Assembly: GCF_004010195.1 (NCBI RefSeq)
Contig: NC_057759.1
Location: forward strand, 2,107,237-2,171,236
Origin: Chiloscyllium plagiosum
Lineage: Eukaryota
Reading direction: 5' to 3'
DNA: 64,000 nt
Positions 1 through 62,830 of this stretch are shown piece by piece. The stretch's first letter is position 1, and every line of letters begins with the position of its first letter. The notes under the pieces are model-generated. The model had not been told where the DNA came from. It saw nothing but the letters and a program-made list of their open reading frames with translations, and searched no databases. The position numbers and the translations under genes are program-made.

Positions 1-197
1 TGCTCATGAGAGAATCCTGAGTAAGGAACAAAGTTTTGAACAGGAAGCCTTCTGTCTAAGAAAGCAATGCAGAACATTCTCCCCTTGTTCAGTTCCACAG
101 AGAGCAGTTAGGGTTGAGTTATCAGCTTAATTTATGCAAATGTAGCCATATATCTTTTTTGATACATAAGGAAGTCTTTGGTTATGGGCGCTAAACA

Positions 198-371
198 TCA
201 AAATGAGATGAAGACCATAACTAAAGCCTTTGTGATCTGTTCTCAGGACAGAGTACACACAGGCAGATAGAAATTCACAGAATTCAAAATGAGATGAAGA
301 CCATAACTAAAGCCTTTGTGATCTGTTCTCAGGACAGAGTACACACAGGCAGATAGAAATTCACAGAATTC
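198..371. repeat. Perfect 86-bp tandem duplication
   Basis: tcaaaatgagatgaagacc...cacagaat occurs at 198-283 and again at 284-369. Confidence 0.95.
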
Positions 372-1102
372 TCATGCTTCTTATGGTCTTCTGCTTTGAG
401 ATATTTAAAGTGACACAAGATTCAAAGAAATTAATAACTACAGCATATACACTGTATCTGCAGCATCATTCACCATACATTTTATCTTTAACTTACTGAT
501 GTGTGTGCTCACAGATCACACTGATCAATTCAGTTATAAGTTACCCTGATGTATCAAGGATGGAGTTAAAAAAAACATGAACCATGCATTTCATCAGAAA
601 CTTTGAGATGTTGAGATATTTGCTCTCTGTCATGTCAGTGATTGAAACTGAGTAAATACAAGATTAGAAACAATAAACTGGCAGTTACAGAATGAAATAC
701 TGAGTCACTTGCAAAGCAATAAATTGTGAGGATATAATACAACTATTGATTAGCTAGAAACTGGCATAAACAATGTAACATCTGCAGTGACATTGCAGAT
801 ATTGTCAGTAACAATATACAAAGTATTATCCTTTATCAAAATGCTGCAGTTATAAATACAAACGCAAATTCAATTTGCAGAAGCTGATATTCATAGGGCA
901 TGGGAGTGGAGGATAGTGAGTTCTATCTGAGTCTGTCCAAAGTGGTATCTGGTACTTTCAATATCTGGTACACCAACAGAGTAAAGCAACAAGGTACACT
1001 TCAGAAGGTTTGAGTTACAGTCCAGTAACATACTGACATGTTAAGACGGTGAAGTAGAGTTTACAAAAATACATCCCAGAAACAGACGGGCACAGATTGG
1101 AG

Positions 1103-1246
1103 TCGAGAGTGCGGTGCTGGAAAAGCATAGCAGTCAGGCAGCATCCGAGGAGTAGGAGAATAGATGTTTCAAGCATAAGCCCTTCATCTCGACCTTTTCG
1201 GCATAAGCCTCTGATCCCCAGCATCTGCAGTTCTCACTTTGTCCTG
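1103..1246 (-). mobile_element. Short Penelope-terminus/SINE-like insertion with degenerate hammerhead motif and internal inversion
   Basis: Reverse-complement match to 11904-12030 and 21448-21542; flanked by 15-bp direct repeat gggcacagattggag (1088-1102, 1247-1261). Confidence 0.7.
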
Positions 1247-2235
1247 GGGCACAGATTGGAGGAATATTTCCAAGTGGTTGACAAATAGTGTAACGTTTTA
1301 CCGCTCACATCAGTGTTTGATGGTTACGGAATAAAACCTGTCTTGGAATAACACTGACTATTAGATGGAGGACCAGAGCCTCATTGGACAGATGTTGAGT
1401 TAATGCAAAATGTGCAAATAAGGACACGACAGATATAAAGTTAAAGTGACGCATATATATAGCATGCTGACAGTTGCTGGTGAACAGGCATTCGCGTAAG
1501 ACTGAGAAATGTTATAAATCCCTACATGAAACTGCAAGACGCCTAATTGAAAAGTGCAGCAACGTGGTTCAGTTACACTGCACGTACTTTCAAAGCCCAC
1601 AGTTATCGATACGTGTCTGGGCCCACAGTTATCAGTCAAGGTCTCAGAAATATATTCATCAATATATGACTCAACAAAAGTATTACATATAAACTTTTTC
1701 TTATAATTTCTCCAACTCCGTGCAGTTGAGAACGAATTGCATCAACCCCAAGTGTAGAAAACTTTCTCAGTCAGGTTCCAGTGGTACGTGTAACTTGACG
1801 ACAAATGTAATCGCAATTTCGAATGGATGAGAGCTTTTTTTTTCACACAGTGAAAAGTTCTGTGTTAATTCCAGCCTATACAGAGGAACAGAAACAGACA
1901 TGCGGAGATAGAAACACATCAGCACAACAACAAGTAAAAGGAAACCGAGCTAATACCACAGTCACTTTCTGTATCACGGACACGAAACACATCTCCCTCA
2001 GTCAGACTGACAGGAACAGAATCACCATCCACTTTACATGTCGTTGCAGATCCAAAGTGGATCTCACACTAACCAATCAGAGAGACTCAATGTTTGGGAA
2101 TGACTCAGTGTAAGCTACCCAATCAGGAGCAAGGCGTTCGCCCATCCCTCATTAGCATTGCTGACGCCGTCAGTCTATAAAGAGGGAACTCCGAGGTCCC
2201 TTTCCCTTATTCTGTGTCTGGAAGTGAGCGGCGCT

Positions 2236-2355
2236 ATGGCTGATGAGAAGAAAACTCAGCAACCCTCCAAGAAGGGCGCGAAGAAAATCATTAAGAAGGC
2301 GCCAGCGAAGGGCGGCAAGAAGAGGAGGCGGTCCAGGAAAGAAAGTTTGAGTTAA
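2236..2355 (+). pseudogene. 3'-truncated histone H2B copy (N-terminal tail only)
   Basis: MADEKKTQQPSKKGAKK...RKES then LS*; no histone fold and no stem-loop. Confidence 0.9.
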
Positions 2356-3009
2356 TGCAAAATGTGTAAATTAGGACACGACAGATATAAAGTTAAAGTG
2401 ACGCATATATATAGCATGCTGACAGTTGCTGGTGAACAGGCTTTCGCGTAAGACTGAGAAATGTTATAAATCCCTGCATGAAACTGCAAGACGCCTAATT
2501 GAAAAGTGCAGCACGTTACACTGCACGTACTTTCAAAGCCCACAGTAATCGATACGTCTCTGGGTCCACAGTTATCAGTCAAGGTCTCAGAAATATATTC
2601 ATCAATATATGACTCAACAAAAGTATTACATATAAACTTTTTCTTATAATTTCTCCAACTCCGTGCAATTGAGAACGAGATGCATCAACCCCAAGTGTAG
2701 AAAACACTCACAGTCAGGTTCCAGTGGTACGTGTAACTTGCCGACAAATGTAATCGCAATTTCGAATGGATGAGAGCTTTTTTTCACACAGTGAAAAGTT
2801 CTGTGTTAATTCCAGCCTATACAGAGGAACAGAAACAGCCATGCGGAGATAGAAACACATCAGCACAACAACGAGCAAAAGGAAACCGAGCTAATACCTC
2901 AGTCACTTTCTGTATCACAGACACGAAACAAATCTCCCTCAGTCAGACTGACAGGAACAGAATCACCATCCACTTCACATGTCGTTGCAGATCCAAAGTG
3001 GATCTCACA

Positions 3010-3125
3010 CTAACCAATCAGAGAGACTCAATGTTTGGGAATGACTCTGTGTAAACTACCCAATCAGAAGCAAGGCGTTCGCCCATCCCTCATTAGCATT
3101 GCTGACGCCGTCAGTCTATAAAGAG
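3010..3125 (+). promoter_or_regulatory. H2B promoter: two CCAAT boxes, octamer variant ATTAGCAT (3092-3099), TATA (3117)
   Basis: Motif order typical of vertebrate H2B promoters; duplicated at ~2071-2183. Confidence 0.7.
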
Positions 3126-3176
3126 GGAACTCCGAGGCCGCTTTCCCTTATTCTGTGTCTGAAAGTGAGTGGGACG

Positions 3177-3557
3177 ATGGCTGATGAGAAGAAAGCACAG
3201 CAAGCCTCCAAGAAGGGCGCGAAGAAAATCATTAAGAAGGCGCCAGCGAAGGGAGGCAAGAAGAGGAGGCGGTCCAGGAAAGAAAGTTACGCCATCTACA
3301 TCTACAAAGTGATGAAACAGGTTCACCCCGACACCGGCATCTCCTCCAAGGCCATGAGCATCATGAACTCGTTCGTCAAAGATATTTTCGAGCGCATCGC
3401 GGGGGAGGCTTCCCGCCTGGCCCATTACAACAAGCGCAGCACCATCAGCTCCCGGGAGATCCAGACCGCCGTGCGGCTGCTGCTGCCCGGGGAGCTGGCC
3501 AAGCACGCCGTGTCGGAGGGCACAAAGGCGGTGACCAAGTACACCAGCTCCAAGTGA
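3177..3557 (+). CDS. H2B: Histone H2B (replication-dependent), 126 aa
   Basis: [26 protein letters not shown]...AVTKYTSSK; true ATG at 3177; intronless; stem-loop downstream. Confidence 0.97.
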
Positions 3558-3598
3558 AGGACCGCACTGCACTGAAACAAACACATCCACAACCCAAA

Positions 3599-3614
3599 GG
3601 CTCTTTTAAGAGCC
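3599..3614 (+). terminator. Histone 3' stem-loop, with HDE-like aaacagctg at ~3631
   Basis: ccaaa-GGCTCTTTTAAGAGCC-accca. Confidence 0.95.
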
Positions 3615-4328
3615 ACCCACAACTTCCCTGAAACAGCTGAACCATTTCTTTAAGAGTTGTTTGTTTTAGTTCACGTGATTTTTGATAAGGCATTTTAACT
3701 TCTCGCGCTATATGTTTTTGTGTTAATAAGTGCTTTGCAAATTATTCGGGAGTGGGGTGGAGAGTGCAGATCAGGCGCCAGTGAGTCATTTTTCATCTTG
3801 TTCATCCCTGGCAGACAAATGCCCACGTCTTTCACCCCCACAGTGGTGTATTTTACCTTCTGATTTACTTTACGTTTCCAATGCGCGGGTTTGATCCGAC
3901 ATTTCACGATGCAAAATAACACTTCATGCTGTCAGTGAGAACTTTCAAATCGAATCGAGAGAACACCAAAACAGCTACCGGGCTGAAACGTGGAGCTTTT
4001 GCTGAATCTGATCGAGAGCGATAAGGGAGGACAGCTTTAAAATATCGTCTGAAAAAAACGGGTGGTACTGAAATGTGAAAAAGAAAGACAGGTTGCAGAC
4101 TGCAGTGTTTGGCCTGTTTTGTTTCGGCTTCTTCTCAAGGTTTAGAAAGTAACCCACTCTCAATATCAGAAATGGATAGATACAGGTCGGCAAATGAGGG
4201 AGAGTAAGACCGTGTGAAGTACACATTTGTAAACTAAAAGTAAATTAACGTGTAGTAATATTTTTTTGAACTTCCTCAGTTTTTTGTACTTCATTTTTCA
4301 GGTAAAACATACTCCTTTATTTGTAAAT

Positions 4329-4969
<641 letters not shown>

Positions 4970-4999
4970 AGAGACGATCCTTGAATCTGACAACCCAAA

Positions 5000-5015
5000 G
5001 GCTCTTTTAAGAGCC
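5000..5015 (+). terminator. Histone 3' stem-loop, with HDE aaaggagctg at ~5032
   Basis: GGCTCTTTTAAGAGCC followed by actca. Confidence 0.95.
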
Positions 5016-6642
5016 ACTCACAGCATCTGTGAAAGGAGCTGAACTCTGTCGGGTTGAATTACTTTTAACGTATAGAGCCCTGGCCGTTGTACCTAACATC
5101 GCTACATTTCTATCTCCTTTTTATTGGATACTGTTACTGTCGGTGGCAGCAGAGGAAGATTATATCATAGATTACGATTGTAAGAGTGCCTGGAACTACA
5201 TTATTTCTCATTACACGGTCACTGCCTGAGTGACCAATGTTCTATGAGTTTAGAATAGTGTCACGGATGTTCCCGATCGGGTTTGGCTTCACATTTCCCT
5301 TAACTGCATCAGTAAGAGCTGAATCCTCCCACTGTCTCTGCATCATTTCCCTCTTCAATTTATTCTCTGCTCGGTTCGTATTCACTTTTCTTTCCCCCCA
5401 GCCTCTGGCGAGAGAGGGTGTTCAACAGCAGTCAGTCATTTTTCAGCTGTAAAAGGAGGGAATGCGGTAAAGTGAGATTGTGTGAAGTTTAGTTTCCTAA
5501 TCGAAAAACCACTCAACGTAGTCGTGCATTCTCCTGCTCGTTTATACGTGATGGCGGGCATTTTCAAATTTGAAAATAAGCCGTTGATCTCTTGGAGCCA
5601 TTTTTTTTTCCCTTTTCCTCTCCTGCCTCCACCTCACCACAAGCCATGTTAACGCAAAGGGAGTCAATGAGGAGAAGGGGTTTTTCCACAACTATCTAAC
5701 CCAATACCAAAATTTGATGTGAACATCACTCTAATTACTATATTTCCGCAATCCCTGAATGAAGATCTCATTATTTGCAAATTCGCTGCCGCTGCTTTCT
5801 GTCTTTGTTATTAACTGAATTCCAAGAGAAATACTGTACGTGTCCCTATCGCTTCCTGCGCTCTCTGGATGAGCAACCAAACTTGTATCCGCTGTGAATC
5901 AATCGAAAAACTGCCAAGTTAAACATCTTATAAGCTAAAACAGTGTACACCGATAAAATTACAGAACCACACTATCAATAACTTTTTATTTTATCCAAAT
6001 TATTGTGCCCGACGACTATTTGTAATCGCTCCCTGAACGGGCAGGTGGAAAGAACGCGCCCCATAACACATTTGCAGCTCCCAGTAACAAAACTGAGCTG
6101 TGTGTTATGCCAGGGAAATGTAACATTAATGTCTGGGTTCCACGATAAATAAAAAGCCAAGTACACACTAATATCATTACTGAAATGGACAGGTATTCAC
6201 GAGAAAGAGGATCAAGGTCACGGAGAGCAGGCACAAGAATAATTATGAGAAATATCAGCCATGATCGAATGGCAGAACAAGCTGGACGGGCAGAATGGCC
6301 GAATGCTGATACTACACCTTACAATTACAAAGATGCGATTCTTTACATGGAATAATCAGGCTGCACAACAGTAGAGTCTCGATTGGCCGAATAGCCTCTT
6401 ATCTACTCTGTAGGAATACTTGCAATTTTAAAATCATTCGCCACGGCAAACAGCAACAAAGTGAACCGGCCACTCCAAATACCGTCTACTGTACCGCAGA
6501 ACACGGTATTGGTACATTTTCGAAACTGAAATAATTTTAAAAGTCGCGATAAACGTGAAATAACCGGCTACAGTAACATTCCCCTCAGTATGCACTGCCT
6601 TCCCCGTCCTCAGGTCTCCGCTCTCTATCGGAGAGTTTGGGT

Positions 6643-6658
6643 GGCTCTGAAAAGAGCC
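6643..6658 (-). terminator. Histone 3' stem-loop of H4
   Basis: Reverse complement GGCTCTTTTCAGAGCC-accca; purine-rich HDE (agagagcgg) follows. Confidence 0.95.
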
Positions 6659-6690
6659 TTTGGGTTCGCTGGAAATGGGTCGCTTTATCC

Positions 6691-7011
<321 letters not shown>

Positions 7012-8547
7012 TCACTCCAATCGCTGCCGAATGAGAGCCGAGCTGCCTCCCCTTCCTTTTTTATACAACCCGGCCCGACCTGGCTGAGAAAGAGCTGACA
7101 GAGAGTGAGAGGCGGCTCCGGAGAGGAAACTGAGTGACAGACAGAGCAGGGAAATGGCTTTGATCATCCAGCTCCGCCTCCAGCCCTCTCCCCCCAACTG
7201 TGTCTGGGACCGAACCTTTTCTCCCCAAAGCTGACTATTCCTGAGCAGAGGAGCGCATCCGTGAGGCCCTCTCCCAGCGGTGCCATTGAGGAGCATTTAC
7301 TCATTGAGTGCAAGAGGTTTGTTTGAAACAGACCGCGATGGAGAGATCAGCGCCCAGGGAAGCGAGGGAACAGCAGGCTCCTTCCAGCAGCACATCGGGA
7401 TGGGAGCCTGGGTCACAGAGGGGGCTCCGAGACCGGGATTGATTCGGGGTGAGTTCAGGGAGAACCGGGGGCTGTTTGTAAGAGGCCGAGCGGAGCAGGA
7501 ACTGGTCCCGGAACTTGGAGTGAGCGGGCTGGGGGGAAGAGAGAGGCCTTTCTCGGGCTGTGTGTGGGCCTGCTGTGGGAGGCAGAGGGGGAAGGAGCTG
7601 CTGTGGGCCATTCTGGTGGTTTACAATCCTCTGAACCTGTTTTAATTTCAATCTGTTTCCCGCTCTTTCTTGAGTTTGGGTGAATCAACTGTAGGAATGT
7701 GATACTCTTGTAAAAAGACATACACTGGAGTCTTGGTAAAAACATTAACAATAGCGCCGTTTTTCCTATTTCTAACAGGTAGTTGGGGAGTTGGATGTTG
7801 AACTGTGTAAGCATCCTGGTGGTTGAGTATTCCCATTCATGGTTCTGCGCAGTTGTCGCTCAGTTTCTGGATCTCACTCAACTGATATCAAGTTAAAAGT
7901 GGCACAACACCAGTTTATAGTCCCAACAGTTTTTTTGGAAGCACTTGATGTATAACATTATGCACCAACATCTCCAAATCAACTGGTATCGAATCACACG
8001 AAAAACAAACACAATCCCCAGACAAGGTGCAGCTCAGAGCAACAATGGAATCAGATCCGTGGTTCTGGTTAAGTTGTTGGCTTTAAAAAAAAACACACAC
8101 ACACATCCTAATTAATATACAATGAATGTGACAATGATCAGTTCAATATTGCCAGTCTAGCCTCATGTTGATTTACAGGTGGTGTCCCTGTGTCTTCCTC
8201 CAGAAAAACACCTGAGGGACTAGGACACTGTAATACTTCCTCAGTTCAAAGCAAAGAGTAACCAGCTGCCTCTAACAAACAGAGGGTATGTAGCCCATTG
8301 ACGTTTACACACCAGTGTTGGACATAGATAAACTGAATCCTCATCCAAAATAAACATTCAGGAACAGCACTAAAATCTGCAGTTATTAAGTGCATTTTCA
8401 AAGTTACAATGAAGGTAGACAATTAGGCCACATTGTTGCATCGTTTCAACAACCATCCGTGAAGGAGGGGTTAAGTACAGAGATGGAGGGAAACTGTGCT
8501 CACCGACAGGGCAAGAGTTACTGAAGAGTCGTCGAGTCATAAAGACA

Positions 8548-10165
8548 GAGAGCATGCAAACAGACCCTTCGGTCCAACTTGTCCAGATATCCTAACCTAA
8601 TCTAGTCCTATTTGCCAGCACTTAACCCATCTCCCTCTAAACACTTCCTATTCATATTGTTAAAGTACAGATTTGAGATGGCCCAGGGAATCCCTTGTAG
8701 ACTCAGACCTATCAGCCTCTCTTTGTTCGTCCTGGAGATGGTACTGTTTGGTAGTCTGGAATAAAAACCTCTTACAAACAGTTTAGTTCAATGTTACCAA
8801 TAGAATCACTGTTACAACGTAACATTGACACCTAAAACCTTAGAAAAGTAGGATACCAACTCTTCCTTTAAGTGCCCTCGCAGGCTATTCCATTCTTCTG
8901 TCTCAAATAGGCTTCCTGTTTACAAAATTTTACAAAAAACACTGCATGTTCTTAATTAGACAGACAGTGGAAAGGCAACAATTCGTAAGGAAGAGAAGTT
9001 AATTAGCAGGTCTGTGCACGCTTAACTGATCACTCCTGTAGGCCCTTAGCCATCCATCAGGGGGAAAAACAGATCCAGCCGAGTCAGTGCCTGTTGGTGA
9101 GCTAAGTCCCTGTCATAAAGAGGTATCAGTCTAAACTAAGTGGAAGAGGTCATAAGGTAACCTTGCACAGCTTGCATGTCAGATATCATTGTTTTACAAA
9201 ATGGCATCTTAGTGAGGAGGGCAAGCTTTGACCATAAAATGGCTTCCTGACAGATAGTGTCAGAATCTCTTCAATGATCAGTTTAGAATAATTTTTAAGC
9301 TCGGGGCAGACTCCTGCTTTTTATCTTAAACACAAAATTATTCTGTACCTGAGGCTGAAAGGTTACATTTTAAATGATTCATTGTCAAATTAAATATGCT
9401 TTTTTTTTCAGGGCTGTGACTCAAATTCAAAGACGACAGAAGATCTGACGAGTTAGAATTGACAGAGGATCAGTTGTGGTGTGTAGGAACACCAAGTAAG
9501 TTAAAGCTTCATCAGTATTACACTTTAGAGTTTGTATTTCATAATCAGCGATGGCTACTCAAAATTACCATAAAGTCCCAAAATGCAAATAAATTCAAAA
9601 CATTCATCTCTCTGTCTCTCACACACACACACCACACACAATAAGAATCCATTATAATTGATAGGATCTGACCGTTTATTACAAGACTTTTGACATGCTT
9701 CTAGGATGACGCCGAGTTTCCGAGATCATGATCAAACACTGTCATTAATTTCATAAGCTAACATCTGTGAATGTTATCACTGTGTCCTTTTTACACAGAT
9801 TCATTGATGTTAAGGCAAATGTTCTTAATTGCTTGAGAGCATCCTGTTATCACTTGGTGAGAATAGATTTTTTTTAATCTTCTGCACATCCTGGGTTCCC
9901 CCTTTTGTGGCCTGATGCCTCCCTGCCTGTCCTGTTTATTTTCTTGTGTTCTATAATTCAACATTACATTTAGTCTAAGTATTTAAGGACAAGTTTCAAG
10001 GCTTTCTCATTATACCCACTCAGATGCCTTTTAAATGTTGTAATTGTACCAGGCTCCACCACTTCTCCATGCGCCTTATGATTTTATAAACTTCTATAAG
10101 GTCACTCTCCAGGGAAAACAGTTCCAGCCTATTCAGCCTCTGCCAATATCTCATTCTCCAACCGG
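8548..10165 (-). mobile_element. CR1 LINE 3' tail split by a 1.35-kb insertion
   Basis: 8548-8657 and 10010-10165 match the CR1 tails at 16280-16830 and 54596-55040. Confidence 0.75.
8658..10009 (+). mobile_element. Putative solo LTR / LTR-like insertion
   Basis: Starts TGTT, ends tttctCA like the ERV LTR at 41019, interrupts a CR1 cleanly; imperfect 4-bp TSD atat/ttat. Confidence 0.45.
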
Positions 10166-10449: not shown

Positions 10450-12773
10450 GATTCATTTTGTGTATGCCTGTTGATACAATTGCTTTAAATTTTCGTCTTT
10501 TTGCAGTAACTCAATTAATTTACCTGAGCTAAAGACGTCTGCTTTGTCGTCTATCTGTTCCTGGTTTGTCTCAGCCATATGATCAAACTAATTTGCTAAT
10601 CTGCTAATTTCCCTTCAATTTTATCTGTACTCTTTGATCTTTTCTGTTTCAACTGGTGACTTTGTGACCTCGTTACCACACAGTCAGGAAACATCCTGCA
10701 ATAGCTCAGTTGCCTGAATTTCCATTGGCTTTTCCGCCACAGTCGGCAGCACTCTTATCGGTGAATCAGCAACATCACTACCAACAACAAATTGTATTCC
10801 TGGAGCTAAGCGTTTGTCTAGTACTCCTACTATGACTTTTCCCCTCTTCACTAGGCACTCTAACCTCACATCTTACAATTGAGTATTTCTTGTCTCAATG
10901 TGAATTCCCGTTACTCATACCTTTTCTGGCAATAGTCCTTCAGAGGTACATATATCCACATCTTTTAGCATCACAGATTGAGAGGATCCTTCTATCTCTC
11001 AATATTGTTACCTTTTTGCCTGCTGCTTCTGGCCTATGCGAAAAAACTTTACCTTCACGGTGTATGGTTTAAGAAGATCTGGCACTTCCTCCATAAGCAA
11101 CCTCTGACCAGCTTGTACATTCTGGTGCAGCTTTCTAGTCTCCACAGTGCTCTTTGTTACCACTCCAACAAAATTCACTGGTTTATCCTGTTTTCCTACA
11201 TCTGGTTTCTCAGTGCATTTCCTAACCTAACAACACTGATTTCATGTGGCCTACTTTATTGAAAACATCAGAGCTTTTCACTTCTCTTTCCTTATGATCT
11301 TCACCAAGATCTACTTTTTACTTTCCATGTGAGAATTTCTCTTACCCACAATTATTATCCCTCATAGATAGAAATTGATTTTAGCAGCCCGATTTTGATT
11401 TATTGATCAACTCAATCATCAGCCATTTCTGATGTCAATCTTGCTGTTTTAACACTCTGCTCTTCCCCGTGAGTTCTCATTAATTCAGGAAGCAAACTTT
11501 TGAACTCCTAAGTGCCAATTTCTGATGTTCAAACTCCCTCTTTCTTCCTTTCATCTCTCTCCTTTTCTCTCTTCTCCCTCTCTTCTGCTTTTAATTGTAT
11601 TTCAAACTGTTTCATTTCTGTTGCCCTTTCCTTGACTTTTGCCTCTAACTCAAGTTGCTTCATTTTAAATTGAATGTTAACCATCTCTAAAGATTCTGAT
11701 GGCATTTCCAGCCATTACCTGTTGAGCTATTACTGTCATTATCGCCCTTTTCCTCGTGGATGGAGGCAGGTTGAGCTCCAGCTTGTCGGCTAATTCCAGC
11801 AACTTGGCCTTAATCACTTTTTTGCAAAAATCTGAAGTCACTCCTTCCACCCCCCCAGAAAACTCTTGATGACTCAAATAGCCATTTCTATCCCTAGCAC
11901 TATTTCCTGATGAAGGGCTGATGCCCAAAACATTGATTCTCCTACTCCTCAGATGCTGCCTGACCTGCTGTGCTTTTTCAGCACCACACTCTTGTCACCG
12001 ATCTTCAGCATCCGCAGTCCTCACTTTTTCCAAGCACCGTTAAAACCAATTAAATTTAACACCCAGAACAAAAGACACTAAGACTTACCACTCACTATCT
12101 TCGAGTCCAACAACCTGAATCCCAAATCAGAACTACAGAACAAAACTCTGCAAACAGCCCCCAATCTGTTATGGAAAAGGCCAGACCCCCTTCAAACATT
12201 TCAAGAAAGTAACCCAGACCCTAACTTTGCTAGTTGTTTTAAGCGGATGTAATGAAGATATTCCAGGAGGGATGCAGCTGGTCAAACGACATAGTTTTAA
12301 ACAAAACAGTATTGATTTCCAAAATTACTAAATGATACACAAAAGAGAACAGAATATTGAATTACTTAACAAATCTGATAACCCAACAGATTGTACCAAC
12401 TTAATGATGGTATTTACAAAACTTAAAACAATCCCCATGAACACCCCTTGACACAAAAGGTAAAATCAAACACAGGGTCTTACAAGAGAGATTTTAGAGA
12501 GAGAGAGAGAGAACCATCACGGACCTGCTTCTTTGGGTTCAGCAGCTTTTTCAACTGCCTAACTGCTTTCAGTCAATAGCCAGACAGCCAAAAACCACAT
12601 CAAACCAGAGAAAAGCTGAGCTGGGAAAACTGAGCCACTTATTAAAAATGTGGAAGTTTTTTGCCTGAGGCTTTACCTGTCAGCTAAAATCAAAATAGCC
12701 CTAAAACCCATCGACTCAGTCTTTTTGGAGCCGGTGTCTTTTACAGGCTTGTTAAAGGAGCAGCATCATCACA
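10450..12773 (-). mobile_element. Gypsy-type LTR retrotransposon remnant: LTR (12167-12773), PBS, decayed gag/protease
   Basis: Minus-strand LTR TGTGA...TAACA followed by TGGGGGCT (tRNA-Pro-like PBS, 12156-12163); KAKLLELADKLEL gag-like and VGVL..GIQFVVGSDVA protease-like peptides. Confidence 0.65.
11902..12030 (+). mobile_element. Hammerhead-motif short element (family A), degenerate core
   Basis: cCTGATGAagggc-tgat-gccc-aaaa (GAAA mutated), then the same tail as 21481-21535; TSD-like cctagcac/ccaagcac. Confidence 0.7.
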
Positions 12774-13387: not shown

Positions 13388-13471
13388 CTAACTGATGAAG
13401 GAGGAGCACTCTGAAAGCGTGCACTTCCAAATAAACCTGTTGAACTATAACCTGGTGTTGAGTGATTTTTA
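13388..13471 (+). mobile_element. Hammerhead-motif short element (family B)
   Basis: CTGATGA(13392)-aggag..ctct-GAAA(13413); flanked by actaaatagtgag / actaattagtgag. Confidence 0.7.
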
Positions 13472-15330: not shown

Positions 15331-16279
15331 AGGATACTTTTCACTTTATAATAGAGGTGAACAAATAGACAATGCTGTTAGTTTGAACAACCATATACGA
15401 AGTCGATCATGAGTACAGATATTGAAGGAAACATTTCAGCTATCAGGAACAGAGAAGGACAGAATTAATCTTTTGTCACAATACTCTAAGTATGACCTAA
15501 CCAAAGTCTTATAAAGCTGCAATAAGATATCCTGACTCTTGCACTCAATTCCCCAACAAATAAGGCAAGCATGCTAGACACCTTCCTCCAGATACCACCC
15601 TATTGACTTGCATAGCCACTTTCAGGGAGCTATAGACTTGATCCCCAAGATCCATCTGTACATCAACTACTTTCAGAGTCCAGCCATTTACTATATATGT
15701 TTCCTTAACATTTGATCTCCCAAAGTCCAGCATCTTACACTTTGCCAGATTAAGCTCATCTGCCGTTGGTGAGTTTTGAGAAAATTTGTAGCTCAGGTTG
15801 AGGCTTTGGTTGTAGGTTTGCTCACTGAGCTTCAAGATTCATTTCCAGACATTTCATTATCCTACTAGATAACATCTTCAGCGGGCCTCAGGCGAAGCAA
15901 TGCTGAAAATTCCTGCTTTCTATCTATATGTTTAGGAGTCTTTGGTTTGGTGGTGCCATTTCCTGTGGTGAAGTCACTTCCTGTTCCTTTTATCAGGGGG
16001 TGGTAGATAGGGTCTAACTCTGTGTTTGTTGATAGATTTCCGGTTGGAATGCCATGCTTCTAGGAATTCTTGCACGTGTCTTTGTTTGGCTTGCCCTAGG
16101 ATGGTTGTGTTGTTCCAGCCGAAGTGGTGTCCTTCCTCCTCTGAATGTGAGGATACTAATGAGAGAGGGTCATGTCTTTTTGTGGCTAGTTGTGTTCTTG
16201 TATCCTGGTGGCTAGTTTCCGGCCTGCTTGTCCAATGTAGTGATTGTTAGTCCTTGCACGGTATTTTGTTCATGACATT

Positions 16280-17394: not shown

Positions 17395-20300
17395 TCAATA
17401 TTTGGTCTGTACATGTTTTTCTGTAGATGCTGGTTTGAAGCTCCCCATTTGCTGTTTGCTCTAGTGTGACTTCTAGGAATGGCAGTTTGTTCTTGTTTTC
17501 TTCTTTTTAGTGAATTTTATGCCGATAGGGGTATTATTGATGGTCTTGAAGGTTTCCGCTAACATGTTTCATTTAGTGATGACAAAGGTGTCATCCACGT
17601 AGCGGACCCAAAGTTTGGGTTGGATGGTTGGCAGAGCTGTTTGCTCAAGTCACTGCATTACTGCCTTTGATAAGAACCCTGATATTGGATATCCCATGGG
17701 TGTTCCATTGGTTTGTCTGTAGGGTTGTTGTTGTTGAAGGTGAAGTGGCTGGTAAGGCATAGGTCCATTAGCTTGATAATATTCTCCTTGTTGAAGTTTG
17801 TGGTGTTTGATATGTGTCTTTGCATCTTCTAATAGTGTAGTCAGTGTTTCCCTGGCCAGGTTAATGTTGATTGAAGTAAACAGGGCTGTTACATAAAAGG
17901 AGACCAATATTTCATCCTCTTCTACCTTAGTGTCTTTAATGGTCTTCAGGAATTCTTGGGTGGAGTGGTGAGAGTTTTCTACTAAGTGTTTTAGACTTTG
18001 GTGTAGCTCCTTGGCCAATCTGTAAGTTGGTGTTCCAGGTAGTAAGACGATGGGTCTGAGGGGGAGCTCCTGGTTTGTGAATTTTGGGTAATCCGTAGAA
18101 TCGTGGTGTGTTGAATCCATCTGGTTTCATTTTTTTTTAAGTCCGTCTTATTTATTCCTCCAGATTTCTGGAGTTTTCTTTGAGTGGGGCTGTGATTCAG
18201 TTCTCCAGTTATGGAGTCAGGTCTATCACCCTTTGTTAGTAAGTATTGGTATCTGTAAGTAGTGCATTTGCTTTCTTAATGTAGTCTCTTCGATTTAGAA
18301 TGATTGTCAAGGGTCCTTTGTTTGCAGTTAGGATAACAATGTTTTTATCTTTTTTTTAGTCTTTCCAGTGCTTTCCTTTCTTGTGTATTGAGTGTGTTTT
18401 CTTCCTTTTTCCTGCCACTCCCTGAGAAAAGAACAGGAAGTGACTTCACCACAGAAAATGGCATTACCAACCCAAAGAAACCCAAACATATAAATAGAAA
18501 GCAAGAACTTTCAGCATTGCTTTGCCTGAGGCCCAATGAAGATGTTACCTATTAGGATAACAAAATGTCTGGAAATGAATCTTGCAGCTCAGCGATCAAT
18601 CTGCCGTTTTTCCGGCCATATCCTCCTGTATCCTTTGACAAGCTTCCACACTACCCACAAGTCCATCAGTCTTTATGTCGTCTGCATTTAGTAACGATAA
18701 TTTTAATGTTACAATTAAGGCAAACAAATGGCTGATGTGATTACTTTGAGCAACCATATGTAAAATAGATATTGAGTACAAATTTATATTGAAGGAAACA
18801 TTTCAGCTCTCAGGAATTGACAGTGATGGAATTAATCTTTTGTCATGTATATAAACATAGCAATCAAATAACATGAATTCTAAATGCACATTCTCTGCAA
18901 AGCCTGACATAGAATGATTACTGTGTAGGTATGTAACCAATTGTTGCCCCCCAACCTCCCAACACACACACTGTCTCTATCTCTCTGACTTACTTTCCAA
19001 TGTCTAACTGCCTTGCAGTTCAAATGACATTGCAAGTAACAGAAAATGTTACATTCAAAATTATTTCTACCCACAAATCCTTTGTCAGAGAGTGAGAGGC
19101 TGACAGCACAGAATCAGGCCCTTCAAAACTTTTGAGTCTGTACCGATCAGAAACAACCAGCTAACAATTTTCATCCTGATCAGCTAGCATCTATTTGCAT
19201 AAATGTATCACTGTAGCATAGAAGCTGCCATCCCCATCTTTGTCACAACATCATTCACCATTTCTTCATATTGCAGTAGAAGACTTTGTTTTGTCTGTTT
19301 CAGTCCAACCAGAAACTTTTTAACAGATAATTATGTACTACTTTCAAAATTAGTTGCAATTATTTACAAAGAGCTCTGCATTCGTCCTATCCCTCCCGAG
19401 GATGTATCAATAAAATGCATGAGATCTGGCTGCAATTTCACAATTCATCAATGGAATCTAATAACCACCCTTCAAAGCAGTGGAGAAAGGGGGGGATAAA
19501 AGCCAAAATCGGTAGGTTTGTAAAACTGCTCATTTTATTATCAAGTAGAGTTGAACAGTGTTGATTATTCCATAAATTGAATTTGATAATTTACATATTC
19601 TGCACTGCGTGACAAAAAATAAAAATCCTTTTCCTTTCCTCCTTCCTACTATAGAGTAACACAAGAGTACTGTTAATGGTACATCATCACACTACAGAGC
19701 AGGGTAATGTTCTGTCTACATCAGAAAAAAAGTGAATTAGCCAATTGTCTTTTCTGTACAAGGAACATTATGGTCAGTCAGCTCCAATGCAATTGAATTG
19801 TTTGTCACCCTTTCACTTAGTTGCAAATGAATTCAGTTTACACTGATTGTTAGTTCAGCAGTGTTCAGAAAAGTACATCAATATGCACTGAAACAAAACT
19901 AATGGCATTCTGAAGACGAACATTTTATATCAATACTGCTGTTAGATTCTGCATTATACAAGATACAAAAGGTTCATTGTGTATCCTACCTTGACTCTGA
20001 AGAACAGCACAAAATCCTTTCTTTTGGAGTGTGTTACGTTTTCACTACACGTGATTCCTACAGGCACTAACAATTAAAGAACTTTGGCTGTTTCCCATCC
20101 ACTATAGGAGACATCAACTGAGTTACAGAGTGGCAACATAAGAGCAAACTCACTCTCACTCAGCCACTAGATGCTGAAAGGAAAAGAATAAAATTAGGCC
20201 TGAATTATTTCCAGATACGTATTGACTCTCAACATTACTTATCACAGCTGAGGATGTGCAGTGCCCAGCAGCGCTTGATAAAATCTACTATACAGGCATG

Positions 20301-21447
20301 CACACACAATGTAACAATAATCTGAGACTGAAATGCAATACAATTAAGCATCATTGAAAAGAGTTTATTTACAGAGTTTATGCTACACAAACCCACAACT
20401 GAACATAAGTGAACGAGATCAAGTAAATCTCCAATGAACCCTCTCCACAGCTTGAGAATACTGCCTTAAAAAAAGTCCCCAGAACTGAACACAAATGAGA
20501 TCTGACCAATGATCTGTGATTGAGATTGTGGGAAACATATCAAAACTAGCACTATAGTTATTAAAAGTCGGATGACAGCAGAACTGATGCCGCATTCTCC
20601 TTTCCATAGAGACACTGACAACAAGTGGATGAAGTTCACATTCCCAACAATTACTACAGAACTGATGCATAACAGGATGTTCCAGTACAGACACAATAGG
20701 CTGAATGGTCTGCTTCTGAGCTGTGCCATAGCAGTGACTCTGATTTTGATGAGAAAGTAGATGACATGCTGTTGTGTTGCATATTTGTATGAAAAATATC
20801 AGACAGAAATGGACTGACATGTAGAATAAAACTCTCTTTCACAAAATAAACACCAACAATGTCTGGGTACAAATTAAAACTAAATGTCTCAGTGATACCA
20901 CAGATCCCAGACTCTCTACCCAAACAGGAAATGCGTGACCAAATTCAGAATGGTTCTCAGAATAAAGCAGTTTCCCTTCTGCCATTGCCCTTTCTCCTTT
21001 CTCCCCCACCCACCCCGACAGACTGACAGTCAACTAAAAAAAATCAGAAAATGCGGAAAAGATGAAGATCCAGTCTCAACACCCTCATAACAAATATCAC
21101 AGAATGTATCACATAAACACAGAGAATATTACTAGCTTCCACTTTGATACACAAGAGTGGAACCTGACAAGTGCACTCATTCATGTTGCAGAAATAGACA
21201 AACAAATGATGACGGCACAGTTACTGTGATGCAAATCTGGGACAAATAGTCTCCATCGGTCAGTTTCTCTCAACTTAAGTCTCACACTCGCATTGCAATA
21301 ACTGTCAGGGACAGATTAACAACTACACTCTCATTCACGAAGCTAAAACTGACAGGAACAGAATTCACAGAGCACAGTCTCACAGGTACATATTAGTACC
21401 TGCACTGTTCACATTCATCAAACTGGGTCTGACAGGTAGAAATCGAT

Positions 21448-21542
21448 GGGTCCTGATGAAGGGCTTTTGCCCGAAACGTCGATTTTGCTGCTCGTCGGAT
21501 GCTGCCTGAATTGCTGTGCTCTTCCAGCACCACTGATCCAGA
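21448..21542 (+). ncRNA. 95-bp insertion carrying an intact minimal type-I hammerhead ribozyme core
   Basis: CTGATGA(21453)-a-gggc-tttt-gccc-GAAA-C-GTC(21480); perfect 14-bp TSD aggtagaaatcgat. Confidence 0.75.
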
Positions 21543-21789
21543 AGGTAGAAATCGATATTTAAGTTCACATATTGACAAGGCAGAGATTGAGGGGCATAGA
21601 TTGGTAACTGCATTCACATACTGATAGGAGAAATTGACAAGTACAGATTAATATTGACAGTCTCAATTCACAGAGCAGGAACAGACTGGTAAGTCCACTC
21701 ACATTCACAATCGGGGAAACGGACAGGGAGCGATTGATAGTTACATGCATATAGAAAAGTAACTGACATTGATAACTACATTGGTTATA

Positions 21790-22620
21790 TAAATGATTAG
21801 GAGTGGGTGTTGAGGATATAATTTTTGAATTTGCAGTTGATACTGACCCAGGGAGATGAGTGATTGGGAGGATGATGCTGAGTGACTTCACAGGGAGATT
21901 GACAATTTGGCCAAATGGACAGATATTTGGCAATTAATTCCAATGCAGAGAAATGTGAGGTAATGCATTTGCTACCAGAAACACAGAGCAACAATGCAGG
22001 GTCAATGGTACGTCTTTGAAGGGAGCACTGGAGCAGAGGGACCTCGGGGTTATCATTCTCTTAAGTTGGCCAGGCAAGCTGAAACCTTTGTGAAGAAGGC
22101 TGATAGGATCCTTGTGGTTATAGAGGCATTGAGTATAAAACTGAGGAAACGATGCTACACCTCTAAAAATCATTGGTCAGATCGGTTTTGTTCATTTCTG
22201 GGCTTTTATTTAAGATAGGAACATCAAGCTCTGGAGAGCATTCATTGAAGATTTACTAGAATGATAGCAGGAATGCATAATTTTACATACAAGGAAAGAT
22301 TAGTGATATCAGGCTCCTTTTCCTTGGAGCAGAGAAGATTAAGAGGGGAACCTTATGGAGGTGTTCAAAATTATGCAGAATTTTGCCATGGGAAAGAAGA
22401 ATATTTTGTTACCAATAGTTGGTAAGTCAATAACTCAGGGTCACAATTTCAAGATTGTCAGTAAGAGAGCTAGGTGTGAGATGAGGAGAAACGTCTTTCC
22501 ACAGAGTTGTTAGAATTTGGATGTGCAGCCTGGGATCATGGTGGAGGTAGATTCCATATGAGGTATGAAAAGAGAGCTGGATGTGATGAAATTAGAGGGC
22601 AATGAAGAGAGGGCTGGAAA
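21790..22620 (+). mobile_element. Old CR1 LINE 3' fragment
   Basis: Degenerate FADDT...WQ..FN..KC..HF and gagcagagaagattaagagggga 3' motifs. Confidence 0.75.
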
Positions 22621-42300: not shown

Positions 42301-42337
42301 CCACACGTAAAGGAGGGGCAGAGATAATGGCGTTAAA

Positions 42338-45300
42338 TTGACTAAAGAGTATCTTAAGGTTTCCGGAGTAAAAGGCGAAGAATTCTTGGTGCCTATTTTT
42401 GAACAAACCCTAATTAGAAGAAATGATGAGGAAGTGATAGGGCAATTACTATATATTCCTGACATTGGAAGTAATCTATTAGGTAGGGATTTGATTATAT
42501 TGCTGGGCTTAAAAATTGGGGTGGAGGATAGTGCAGTAACTGTAACGATGGCTATGTTAACACCTAGTGAAGAAAAACAAATCAGCCCTGACGTGTGGGC
42601 GAAAGCGGATAACACAGGGCATCTAATTATTACTCCGTTGGTCATTACATTGACTCGAGAAGATGAGACGGTTCAGGTTAGACAATACCCTATATCGTTG
42701 GAAGACTGTAGAGGACTGCAACCAGTTATAGATTCTTTGGTAAAAACTGGACTGTTAGAACAATGTATATCGCCCTTTAATACCCCAATACTGCCCGTCT
42801 GCAAACCAGATGGAACCTATCGATTGGTGCAGGATCTTAGGGCATTGAACCAATTGGTTCAAACACGACACCTGGTGGTACCTAATCCATATACTTTGCT
42901 AGGCAAAATACCATGTAACCACCACTGGTTTAGTGTAATAGATTTAAAAGATGCATTCTGGGCTTGTGACTTTCTGGGGCCAGAGCACGACATGTTTGCT
43001 TTTGAATGGGAAAACCCATACACTGGTAGAAAACAACAGTTCCGATGGACGGTACTTCCCCAGGGATTCACAGAATCACCTAATCTATTCGGGCAAGTAC
43101 TGGAACAGGTCCTGGAACAACATAAAATGCCTCGGGGAACGTCATTGTTACAATATGTGGACGATTTACTTGTATCAGGACAAAAAAGAAATGACGCGAG
43201 TTTAGCCATCAATAGACTGTTAAATTTCCGAGGGCAACAGGGTTTAAGAGTCTCTAGGAATAAATTGCAATATGTAGAGAAAGAGGTGAAATACTTAGGA
43301 CATCTTATTAATGAGGGCACTAGGCGCATTAACCCTGAGAGAATTAAAGGGATAGTAGAACTGCCCCTTCCAACCACCAAACGAGAATTACAGACGTTCT
43401 TGGGGCTGGTGGGCTATTGTAGATAATGGATACAAGCATATGCCCAGAAAACGAAGTGGTTATATTACAAATTGACAGAATCTGAACATGAAAGACTGCA
43501 CTGGACAGAAGAAGAAAAGGAAGGGTTACATGAGTTGAAGCGTAGTCTAATATGAGCTCCGGTGTTGGCCCTTCCCTCCCTAGATAAACCATTCCAACTT
43601 TTTGTGACAGTAAATGATGGTGCAGTCTTAGGAGTGTTAACCCAGAAAGGAGGGGGAAAGAGACAGCCCATAGCCTTCCTGTCCAAGATCTTGGACCCTG
43701 TCTCGAGAGGATGGCCTGAATGTATACAGGCAGTAGCAGCCACTGCCATACTGGTAGAGGAAAGCTGTAAACTTACTTTTGGAGGGGCGCTAGTTGTTAG
43801 TATCCCCCATCAAGTTAGAACTGTGTTCAACCAAAAGGCAGGGAGATGGTTGACAGACTCACAAATCTTAAAATATGAAGCCATCCTGATGGAGAGAGAT
43901 GACCTTGTGTTAGCAACAGACACCTGTCTAAATCCAGCCACCTTCCTATGGAAAGGAGAACCTCTGGACAACTGAGAATTAGAACATGGCTGTCTGGATA
44001 TCATAGAGTATCAAACCAAAGTTAGACAGGACCTAAAGGATATCCCCTTACATGACAGGGACAGACTGTTTGTTTATTTATAGACTGGTCATCAAGAGTA
44101 GTACAAGGAAAAAGACACAATGGATATGCAGTAGTGGACGGTAACGAGAATCGAACGGTTGAGGCTGACCGGTTGCCTAACACATGGTCGGCCCAGACTT
44201 GAGTTGTATGCATTAAACCAAGCTTTAAAACAATTAGAGAACCGAGATGGGACAATTTACACCGACTCTAAGTATGCCTATGGGGTGGTACATACCTTTG
44301 GAAAAATATGGCAAGAACGTGGACTAATCAATAGCCGGGGAAAGGAATTAATACATGAAGAGTTGATAGGACAAGTGTTGAAAAATTTGGAATTACCCTG
44401 GGAAATAGCTATGGTCCATGTACCTGTGTATCAGAAGGGCAACACTCTAGAAGCAAGAGGGAATAGGCTAGCAGACAAGGCAGCCAAAGAGGCAGCTATG
44501 AGCCATACAGTAACAAAAATACGGGTTCTCACACCCATAGTCGAGTCCCCTTCCGTGAACCCCGTGTACCCTGAAGAAGAGGAAAAGGAATTCCAGGAAA
44601 TGGGGGCCACTAAGACAAACAAGGAAGATGGATCCTCCCGGATGGAAGGGAGTTATTAAATAAACCAGTCATGAGAAACATCCTAACCACCTTGCACCAA
44701 GGCAGTCATTGGGGCTCCCAAGCTATGTGTAACATAGTATTAAGAAAGTACGGATGTAAAGGGATATACACATTAGCCAAGCAGGTATGCGCAGGATGCC
44801 CCACTTGCCAAAAGATTAATAAGAAAGTAACAAGAGGGGGGCCAAGAGGTGGAAGAAACCCTGAGGTAAGACCTTTTCAAAGAATACAGGTAGATTACAC
44901 AGAATTACCCCCAGTAGGGAAACAAATGTACTTATTAGTCCTAATGGATCACTAACTGGGTGGGTGGAGGCATTTCCAATGTCCTCAGCTACCTCGAAGG
45001 GAGTAGTGAAAATTCTTTTAGAACATATAATTCCTCGATATGGAGTGCTGGAAAGTATAGATTTAGACCAAGGTAGCCATTTTACCTTTAAGATCCTACA
45101 AGAAGTAATGGCGGGATTAGAAATCTCTTGGGAATTCCACACTCCTTGGCACTCGCCTTCAACTGGACGGTTGGAACGAATGAATCAAATCTTAAAGAAG
45201 CAATTGTCTAGGCTTGTCCTAGAGACTCGATTGCCATGGACAAAAGGTTTACCTATTGCGTTGCTACACATTAGGACTGCGCCTAGGCACGATATTGGCC

Positions 45301-45702
45301 TCTCTCCTTATGAGATGATGTTTGGACTACCTTTCTTGGTTGGAAGAGGGGAATTACCAACTGTAGAGTTCAATGATAAGTTTTTAAAGAACTATATTGT
45401 GGCGCTCGGCTCTTCTTTGTCTGTCCTTAGGAAGACGTGTCTGTTGACCCAGACGCCTCCACTTGAGTTCGCAGTGCATCGGATATGACCAGGTGATTGG
45501 GTCCTGATAAAGACCTGGAAAGATACCAAACTGCATCCAAGCTAGGAGGGACCATTCCTAACCCTCCTGACGACTAAAACAGCCATCCGAATTGCTGAAA
45601 AAGGGTGGAGTCATCACACACGTGTTAAGGGCCCCGTGGATGCTCCTTCCCCTTCGGCAGAGTGGCAAGCTCATCCTACAGACAACTCTCTGAAAGTCAA
45701 GC
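42338..45702 (+). pseudogene. pol: ERV pro-pol (partial protease, RT, RNase H, integrase) with stops and frameshifts; class I (gamma/epsilon-like)
   Basis: NLLGRD; YRLVQDLR, DLKDAF, LPQGF, YVDD; YTDSKYA, GNRLAD; HHCC, QVDYT..DQGSHF..GRLERMN. Confidence 0.95.
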
Positions 45703-62329: not shown

Positions 62330-62830
62330 CATCTCAGGTAACTATCTGGACCAGGCTCTTTCCAACATTAAGGGAGCATCAAACTTGGAGATCAGCTTTC
62401 AGCCACAGAGCCACATTCTCACCAGACATCAAGAGTATTTCCGAACTGACAGCCAGACTACTGCGACCACTAGGACTCATAACAGCACACAAACCAACAG
62501 CCACTCTCAGATAACAACTCACCAGGACGAAGGACCCGATACCCAGCATGAGCAAAACCAATGTAGTGTACAAAATCCCATGCAAGGACTGCACGAAACA
62601 CTACATAGGACAAACAGGAAGACAGCTAACGATCCGCATCCATGAACACCAACTAGCCACGAAACGACACGACCAACTATCCTTAGTAGCCACACACTCC
62701 GATGATGAGCAACGAATTCGACTGGGACAACACTAATATTATAGGACAAGCCAAACAGAGAATAACCAGGGAATTCCTAGAGGCATGGCACTCTTCCACA
62801 GATTCAATCACAGCTCGGCGAATAGAACCA
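62330..62830 (+). mobile_element. Penelope-like GIY-YIG endonuclease fragment
   Basis: NVVYKIPCKDCTKHYIGQTGRQLTIRIHEH; REFLEAWHS. Confidence 0.9.

Follow-up and report, generated by a model that had tools for sequence, protein, structure and literature searches.

A 95-bp insert at 21448-21542 of the window (the whole 64-kb stretch of DNA analysed) carries a minimal hammerhead motif between two copies of a perfect 14-bp target-site duplication (TSD). By most of the features tested, it belongs with the truncated ends of Penelope-like elements (PLEs) that bear minimal hammerheads, which are a known kind of sequence. Our preferred explanation, to which we assign a probability of about 0.6, is that the insert is the stub of a PLE end, made by internal initiation of reverse transcription and run-off of a promoter-initiated RNA. 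Its origin as the hammerhead-bearing end of a PLE terminal repeat (pLTR) is highly probable, and the step in which the enzyme runs off the 5' end of the RNA is somewhat favored.

The proposed sequence of events is as follows. Transcription would begin about 4 nt ahead of CUGAUGA, directed by a TATA-initiator promoter in the pLTR, and PLE enzymes would copy this RNA, likely uncut by the hammerhead, into a staggered DNA cut. The reverse transcriptase would start at an inner site (+89), copy to the RNA 5' end and add a few G residues after run-off, whereupon the stub would join the target. Such a stub would leave the promoter behind and would probably be dead on arrival. In published systems, DNA is nicked by the PLE enzymes, which begin synthesis at internal positions of an uncut RNA. 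In an anole PLE initiation occurs at two internal sites that define the tail, and hammerhead mutants insert normally (PMC11167929).

The insert, its target site and its hammerhead motif

Offsets are counted from the C of CUGAUGA, with 21453 as 0. The features of the insert and of its two paralogues in the window are as follows.

21434-21447, plus strand: left TSD, 14 bp, occurring once in the empty-site contig of run X10
21448-21450, plus strand: GGG outside the family sequence, which reads CAT here in the consensus of loose ends before 21451
21451-21452, plus strand: UC, the part of the 5' side of helix I that the family encodes, which by sequence pairs with GA at 21481-21482; equivalent pairs covary in relatives
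21453-21460, plus strand: core CUGAUGA (21453-21459) and bulged A (21460), typical of PLE minimal hammerheads as described in PMC4209133
21461-21472, plus strand: stem II, GGGC/GCCC, 4 bp with a UUUU loop, from sequence and fold
21473-21480, plus strand: GAAA, palindromic ACGU (21476-21479) and GUC triplet by sequence, with the predicted cut after 21480
21481-21542, plus strand: 3' body, ending at +89 from the core where the family tail begins; the A at 21543 fits family and target alike
21543-21556, plus strand: right TSD, 14 bp, the same as the left copy
11905-12031, plus strand: decayed paralogue (83% over 83 nt) that shares the 5' start and has a tail of about 35 nt
1088-1261, minus strand: decayed paralogue with a 15-bp TSD (1261-1247 and 1102-1088), an inverted tail, a partial hammerhead duplicate and a sense body ending at +87

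Direct comparison showed that 21434-21447 and 21543-21556 are identical at 14 of 14 bp and that identity stops at both edges, leaving the 95 bp of 21448-21542 between them. The chance of a 14-mer repeat in this bracketing position is about 2e-5 when 2,500 boundary pairs are allowed for, and no such repeat was found at a spacing of 60-200 in 30 block-shuffled windows. Empty-site contigs joining 21433 to 21543 were present in all three DNA-type runs (X1, X5 and X10), each skipping 109 bp, the length of the insert plus one TSD copy. Run X1 contributed two such contigs and run X5 one, with 11 letters fitting both sides, and the single contig of run X10 (organism B) contains all 14 TSD letters once. 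Because the empty-site contigs skip exactly 109 bp and the 14-mer occurs once in X10, the 14-mer must have been present before the insert arrived, which makes it a true TSD; the initial annotation, which described an insert bounded by identical repeats with a perfect 14-bp TSD, is thereby borne out. The target (21175-21430 and 21557-21870) is itself a multi-copy repeat with recurring short motifs, and its summed depth is mostly in the hundreds, reaching about 1,800 away from the insert. Since the flank is multi-copy, the empty sites may belong to paralogues rather than to alleles of the 21434-21556 locus. None of the contigs listed bridged the junctions of the insert with this multi-copy flank.

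The insert retains five CpG dinucleotides in its first 80 nt versus zero and two in the two window paralogues and, by this measure, is probably young relative to them, in agreement with the earlier proposal of a recent insertion. A perfect 14-bp TSD would be expected in 23% of cases at 5% divergence per copy. Of the two machineries to which its mobilization had been ascribed, Penelope is the probable one; LINE is unlikely because the insert has no poly(A) or simple-repeat 3' end. Seven TSD bases (21441-21447) match the insert antisense around the predicted cut site, a match to which we give no weight because about 4% of random 14-mers match too and two other TSDs match at only five bases.

On inspection, the hammerhead anatomy is as initially annotated, from CUGAUGA, the bulged A and the GGGC/GCCC stem through GAAA and GUC to a cut after 21480. 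The CUGANGA core, stem II, GAAA and UH triplet stand in type I order, and the motif has a bulged base before stem II, the G10.1-C11.1 pair (G21461-C21472) and a palindromic helix III that a monomer cannot close. With the ACGU palindrome, helix III is possible only between two molecules. Core, bulged A and palindrome match the PLE-type minimal hammerhead with palindromic stem III to which the motif had been assigned. A strict hammerhead descriptor found no match in 30 shuffled windows. The Infernal check against Rfam that had been suggested gave no hammerhead match in a search of the window, either at the gathering score or at E<=10; as these minimal forms reached no Rfam model, this null result is no evidence against a hammerhead. 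In the lowest-energy fold of the monomer (-11.4 kcal/mol) the core is buried, helices I and II alone reach -8.8 kcal/mol, and the fold of the whole region is weak (z = -1.24). Helix I had been described as two Watson-Crick pairs plus G-U pairs. The two pairs stand, but all three G-U pairs use the GGG at 21448-21450; because this is not family sequence, the copy owes just two of its helix I pairs to the family. From its departure from the family sequence we infer that the GGG is untemplated or derived from the junction. The hammerhead is predicted to work only as a dimer or with the help of a protein, in the parent element.

Relatives were sought with a degenerate core pattern, which returned 23 metagenome loci (L001-L023), 22 of them distinct since L018 and L023 are the same DNA. 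Hammerhead pattern scans gave no match in viral contigs and none in prokaryote genomes, and a narrow pattern gave none in metagenomes. The window copy was aligned with 20 of the 23 loci (L004, L020 and L023 were left out), giving 19 distinct rows. The three inner pairs of helix I can form in 19, 17 and 14 of these rows and have changed on both sides in two, seven and six; in stem II one of four pairs has changed on both sides, the other three being fixed by the search pattern. The covariation score was reached by none of 500 shuffles, in an alignment whose rows are related to each other and to which the window contributes one row. A lack of covariation in stem II had been named as a finding that would tell against the hammerhead; helix I covaries across related families and stem II does so in one of its four pairs. 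This says that the motif has, on the evidence of helix I, apparently been under selection in PLE families, cleavage of the 21448-21542 copy being a separate matter.

The insert family and the upstream edge of its copies

At 85% likeness, 24,940, 26,351 and 34,970 contigs matched the insert family in the three DNA runs. Summed depth on the insert is 5-17 million, versus 16-4,243 in flanking bins, and is no measure of copy number; single family contigs have depths of 10-50. With overlap of short contigs allowed for, we infer a copy number of at least 10^4 in two organisms. Depth before and after the predicted cut site was 5.35/6.15, 8.08/8.35 and 16.6/15.6 million, with no step. Since sequence from both sides of the predicted cut is present in the insert and depth does not step at that point, the templates were likely uncut. 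The family runs on beyond 21543 (loose ends in 89, 134 and 206 records), and loose ends at 21533, 21534 and 21543 represent at least three tail variants.

Eight of the 18 evaluable metagenome loci start at -3 to -8, L012 starts near -31 and nine run far upstream, L007 being the least clear. This count leaves out L023 as a duplicate, L004, L020 and L016, whose contigs start at most 9 nt from the core, and L006, which has no family mate; the search pattern required the whole core and therefore misses any copy that begins within it. In the window, the insert starts at -2, preceded by the GGG, and its paralogue 11905 at about -3; 13388, which belongs to a second family, starts at -4. That second hammerhead family has an AGCU-type palindrome; its short copy (13388-13471, plus strand, starting at -4) has a 13-bp TSD with one mismatch, and its long copy (14683, minus strand, to about 14607) has TATAAA at -38. 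Within the insert family, loose ends before 21451 numbered 719, 744 and 771 per run with an agreement of 0.34, only the last 6-8 letters being common to the runs. This suggests that most copies with loose ends before 21451 start just upstream, in a pile that also gathers copies starting further upstream and in which long loose ends favour contigs entering unique flank. The random 5' ends that would have spoken against the initial annotation were not seen; the ends cluster just before the core. A 3' splice site was ruled out as the cause of this edge because most families have no AG there.

The family letters before 21451 read TCATTCC, which we take to fit the initiator consensus with its A at -4; in the insert, the family letters of positions -4 and -3 are missing. 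An exact TATAWA starts between -34 and -38 in six of the 12 long copies (L001, L002, L014, L019, L022 and the window copy 14683), against a background of 0.0044 per 5-nt window and in a search window picked after viewing the data. The 12 long copies comprise nine loci and three window copies of two other families, and those of one family are not independent. For L002, L014, L019, L022 and 14683, the distance from the TATAWA to a following A, itself at -3 to -8, is 30-31 nt. An exact TATAWA is absent from one window copy and from four long copies of a single family, where TACTTAAG stands at -34 instead; in the third window family the box is at -47. Because the Penelope of Drosophila virilis is described as having a TATA-less promoter and an intron between the start and the hammerhead, a TATA rule is not universal. 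In the published literature searched, from which subscription journals were mostly absent, we found nothing relevant on the run-off, TATA or twin-priming readings, nor on a shark family of this hammerhead repeat.

The same edge could also arise on a longer RNA, if a reverse transcriptase of the same PLE origin stalled or dropped off at the hammerhead fold or at a bound protein. The spread of starts over -3 to -8, several of them at head-to-head inverted junctions (L005, L009, L013 and L018), agrees with stalling, and a PLE protein aids hammerhead folding in vitro (PMC11167929). The nine of 18 loci that continue upstream likewise agree with it and count against a run-off start, as does L012, which begins near -31, upstream of the proposed start. 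Stalling would leave unexplained, however, why TATAWA lies 30-31 nt before an A near the short-copy starts in three families that align only in the core. Depth does not fall across the hammerhead, and the fold on which a polymerase would stall is weak in the monomer. We therefore consider stalling unlikely, though worth weighing ahead of the other alternatives.

Downstream ends and the proposed link to Penelope-like elements

The 3' ends are of two kinds. Short ends lie at +89 (insert), +87 (1088-1261 copy) and +88 (L012), and tailed ends at +124 in the 11905 copy and +144 in L018. PLEs have an optional tail of 30-40 bp (PMC8557442), which in an anole PLE is flanked by the two internal positions where reverse transcription begins (PMC11167929). 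The three window copies show just such an optional tail with two 3' ends (+89 and +87 versus +124), as EN+ PLEs do. Two further EN+ PLE characters are a TSD without a poly(A) end, seen in the insert and the 1088-1261 copy, and an inverted piece on the 5' side, seen in the latter. In the 1088-1261 copy and in L012 the tail is inverted on the 5' side, starting where the sense body ends. From these copies it may be inferred that each cut DNA end served as a primer at one of the two start sites (twin priming). The 1088-1261 copy (minus strand) also has a partial hammerhead duplicate at its inner junction, with the inverted tail and sense body inside the 15-bp TSD. TSDs are 13 bp in L012 and 15 bp in L018. 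A short CAGCA-containing motif, picked post hoc, occurs in the tail region (+98 to +117) of 11 of the 23 loci, against a background of 7%, and the insert has it at +71 (21524); it is possibly part of an enzyme binding or start site.

PLE coding sequence lies beside the hammerhead core in six of the 22 distinct metagenome loci. GIY-YIG sequence is found upstream of the core on the same strand in L001, L008, L015 and L019, and L014 has a reverse transcriptase (RT) on the strand opposite to the core. In L016 a 961-aa open frame directly behind the core has an RT match and GIY-YIG by tblastn; this frame (L016:17-2902) appears to be an intact Neptune-type PLE frame, open from inside the hammerhead. 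L015 and L016 have a two-pair cysteine linker before the nuclease, which is a mark of Neptune/Nematis (PMC8557442). The metagenome relatives do not align with the window outside the hammerhead core, and the ORF and upstream pLTR of the insert family were not recovered, so that its link to PLEs is by analogy and the TATA box is likewise indirect. Protein searches with translated frames found no family ORF or upstream pLTR at E<=0.01, and one 96-aa protein ends in a 24-aa piece of the repeat, from which no PLE link follows. In a tblastn search of the 64-kb window with PLE proteins the only match was 62551-62697, far from the insert-family copies.

Several other features of the window were observed. 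At 15881 (minus strand) and 18536 (plus strand) there is a third hammerhead family, decayed and with a longer stem II. The 15881 copy comes after a stretch that resembles the GIY-YIG fragment at 62551-62793, and 17650-18126 (minus strand) is a PLE RT fragment. The window also contains decayed LINE-like frames, PLE-type RT and GIY-YIG fragments and, by the ORF list, retrovirus-like pol sequence split over several frames at 42311-45488; its content is vertebrate-like. What we take, by resemblance, to be histone genes H2B, H2A and H4 lie at 3045-7011. They carry 3' stem-loops, and a 953-bp tandem duplication (1395-3288) precedes H2B.

The abundance of the family could also be due to non-autonomous master loci that consist of the pLTR only (promoter, hammerhead and tail) and borrow PLE enzymes in the manner of SINEs. 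The very high copy number, the three or more tail variants and the want of an insert-family ORF in the window are in keeping with such loci, and non-autonomous pLTR derivatives have been described (bioRxiv 10.64898/2026.07.22.740005). Nevertheless, long copies in related families lead straight into PLE ORFs, and activity of the anole PLE depends on RNA past the tail, namely the first 172 nt of its ORF (PMC11167929). Nor was a promoter of its own found in the insert; a scan for bacterial promoters, which has no bearing on such an element, was also negative. On either strand no Pol III B box was present at one mismatch, and the A box had only loose matches; a Pol III SINE, with internal A and B boxes, was rejected on the same ground. 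Master loci are thus rather improbable.

Family contigs contain head-to-tail joints, for example from 21542 to 21451 (in X1) and from 21482-21492 to 21451, in six of 12 rows among those listed. Duplications of the hammerhead core of about 40 nt, head to tail, were also seen in contigs on 21451-21492 and could form dimeric hammerheads in cis. Non-LTR retrozymes consist of tandem units each with a hammerhead; the locus copy is a monomer with no tandem array of its family in the 64-kb window, and the few head-to-tail joints lie elsewhere in the family. A strict retrozyme, in which tandem units self-cleave, circularize and are reverse transcribed to give a monomer, would account for these joints and for the intact motif, but is very improbable given that neither insert end is at the cut site or permuted around it, that depth has no step at 21480/81, that the window lacks an array and that eight of nine Xenopus retrozyme dimers were uncleaved in vitro (bioRxiv 10.64898/2026.07.22.740005). 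The view of the insert as an independent retrozyme-like unit is not supported: the copy is a monomer without a Pol III B box, includes both sides of its cut site and ends at the point where longer family copies enter the PLE tail.

Our preferred reading, the run-off stub of a PLE end, may extend further. We tentatively propose, at somewhat less than even odds, that solo minimal hammerheads in animal genomes are "strong-stop-like" run-off products of Neptune-type PLEs, with a TATA-initiator start at the front edge of the hammerhead, 90-150 nt copied from one or both tail sites, and twin priming as the source of inverted-tail copies. Taken singly, the insert is of little consequence, since it has very many counterparts and its kind has been described; the value of the family lies in the natural record that it keeps of how PLEs work. 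If the run-off reading is true, each stub records the PLE transcription start and both initiation sites. A fixed 5' edge that is the transcription start would account for solo hammerheads outnumbering coding copies and for cleavage leaving no mark on insert ends, and would allow internal initiation to be tested directly in vivo.

Comparison with known systems

The non-LTR retrozymes (Li, Clavereau and Pollet 2026, bioRxiv 10.64898/2026.07.22.740005) resemble the insert in being non-coding and pLTR-related, with a type I hammerhead and dispersed monomers. They are defined by tandem hammerhead units, whereas the locus described here is a TSD-bounded monomer.

The insertion architecture described for EN+ PLEs (Arkhipova et al. 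2013, PMC3846280; Craig et al. 2021, PMC8557442) comprises a pLTR, a tail of 30-40 bp, an inverted 5'-truncated copy and a TSD. The optional tail, the inverted 5'-side piece and the TSD recur here. Unlike in the rotifer EN+ PLEs, the TSDs are 13-15 bp rather than 8-10 bp and the unit has no ORF. In one rotifer pLTR, an initiator-like TCACT and a TATA box lie 20 bp apart (PMC3846280; PMC8557442).

The Anolis Poseidon element PAc (Frangieh et al. 2024, PMC11167929) likewise has two 3' ends, which are separated by about 35 nt and follow the hammerhead at roughly 90-125 nt, and its template is uncut RNA. It differs in that relatives of the insert core have a Neptune-type Zn-finger linker. The ORF of PAc starts at stem II, whereas the ATG in the core of the window copies meets a stop after 18 codons.

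The solo minimal hammerheads of truncated metazoan PLEs (Cervera and de la Pena 2014, PMC4209133) differ in stem II, which is only 4 bp here, and the copy number here looks far above their 4,000-9,000 for coelacanth and Xenopus. Neither a fixed 5' boundary nor a TATA box figures in the part of their description considered here. The insert shares with these hammerheads the type I core, the bulged base, the short helix I and the palindromic 15.2-16.2 pairs, and they too occur mostly as single dispersed copies.
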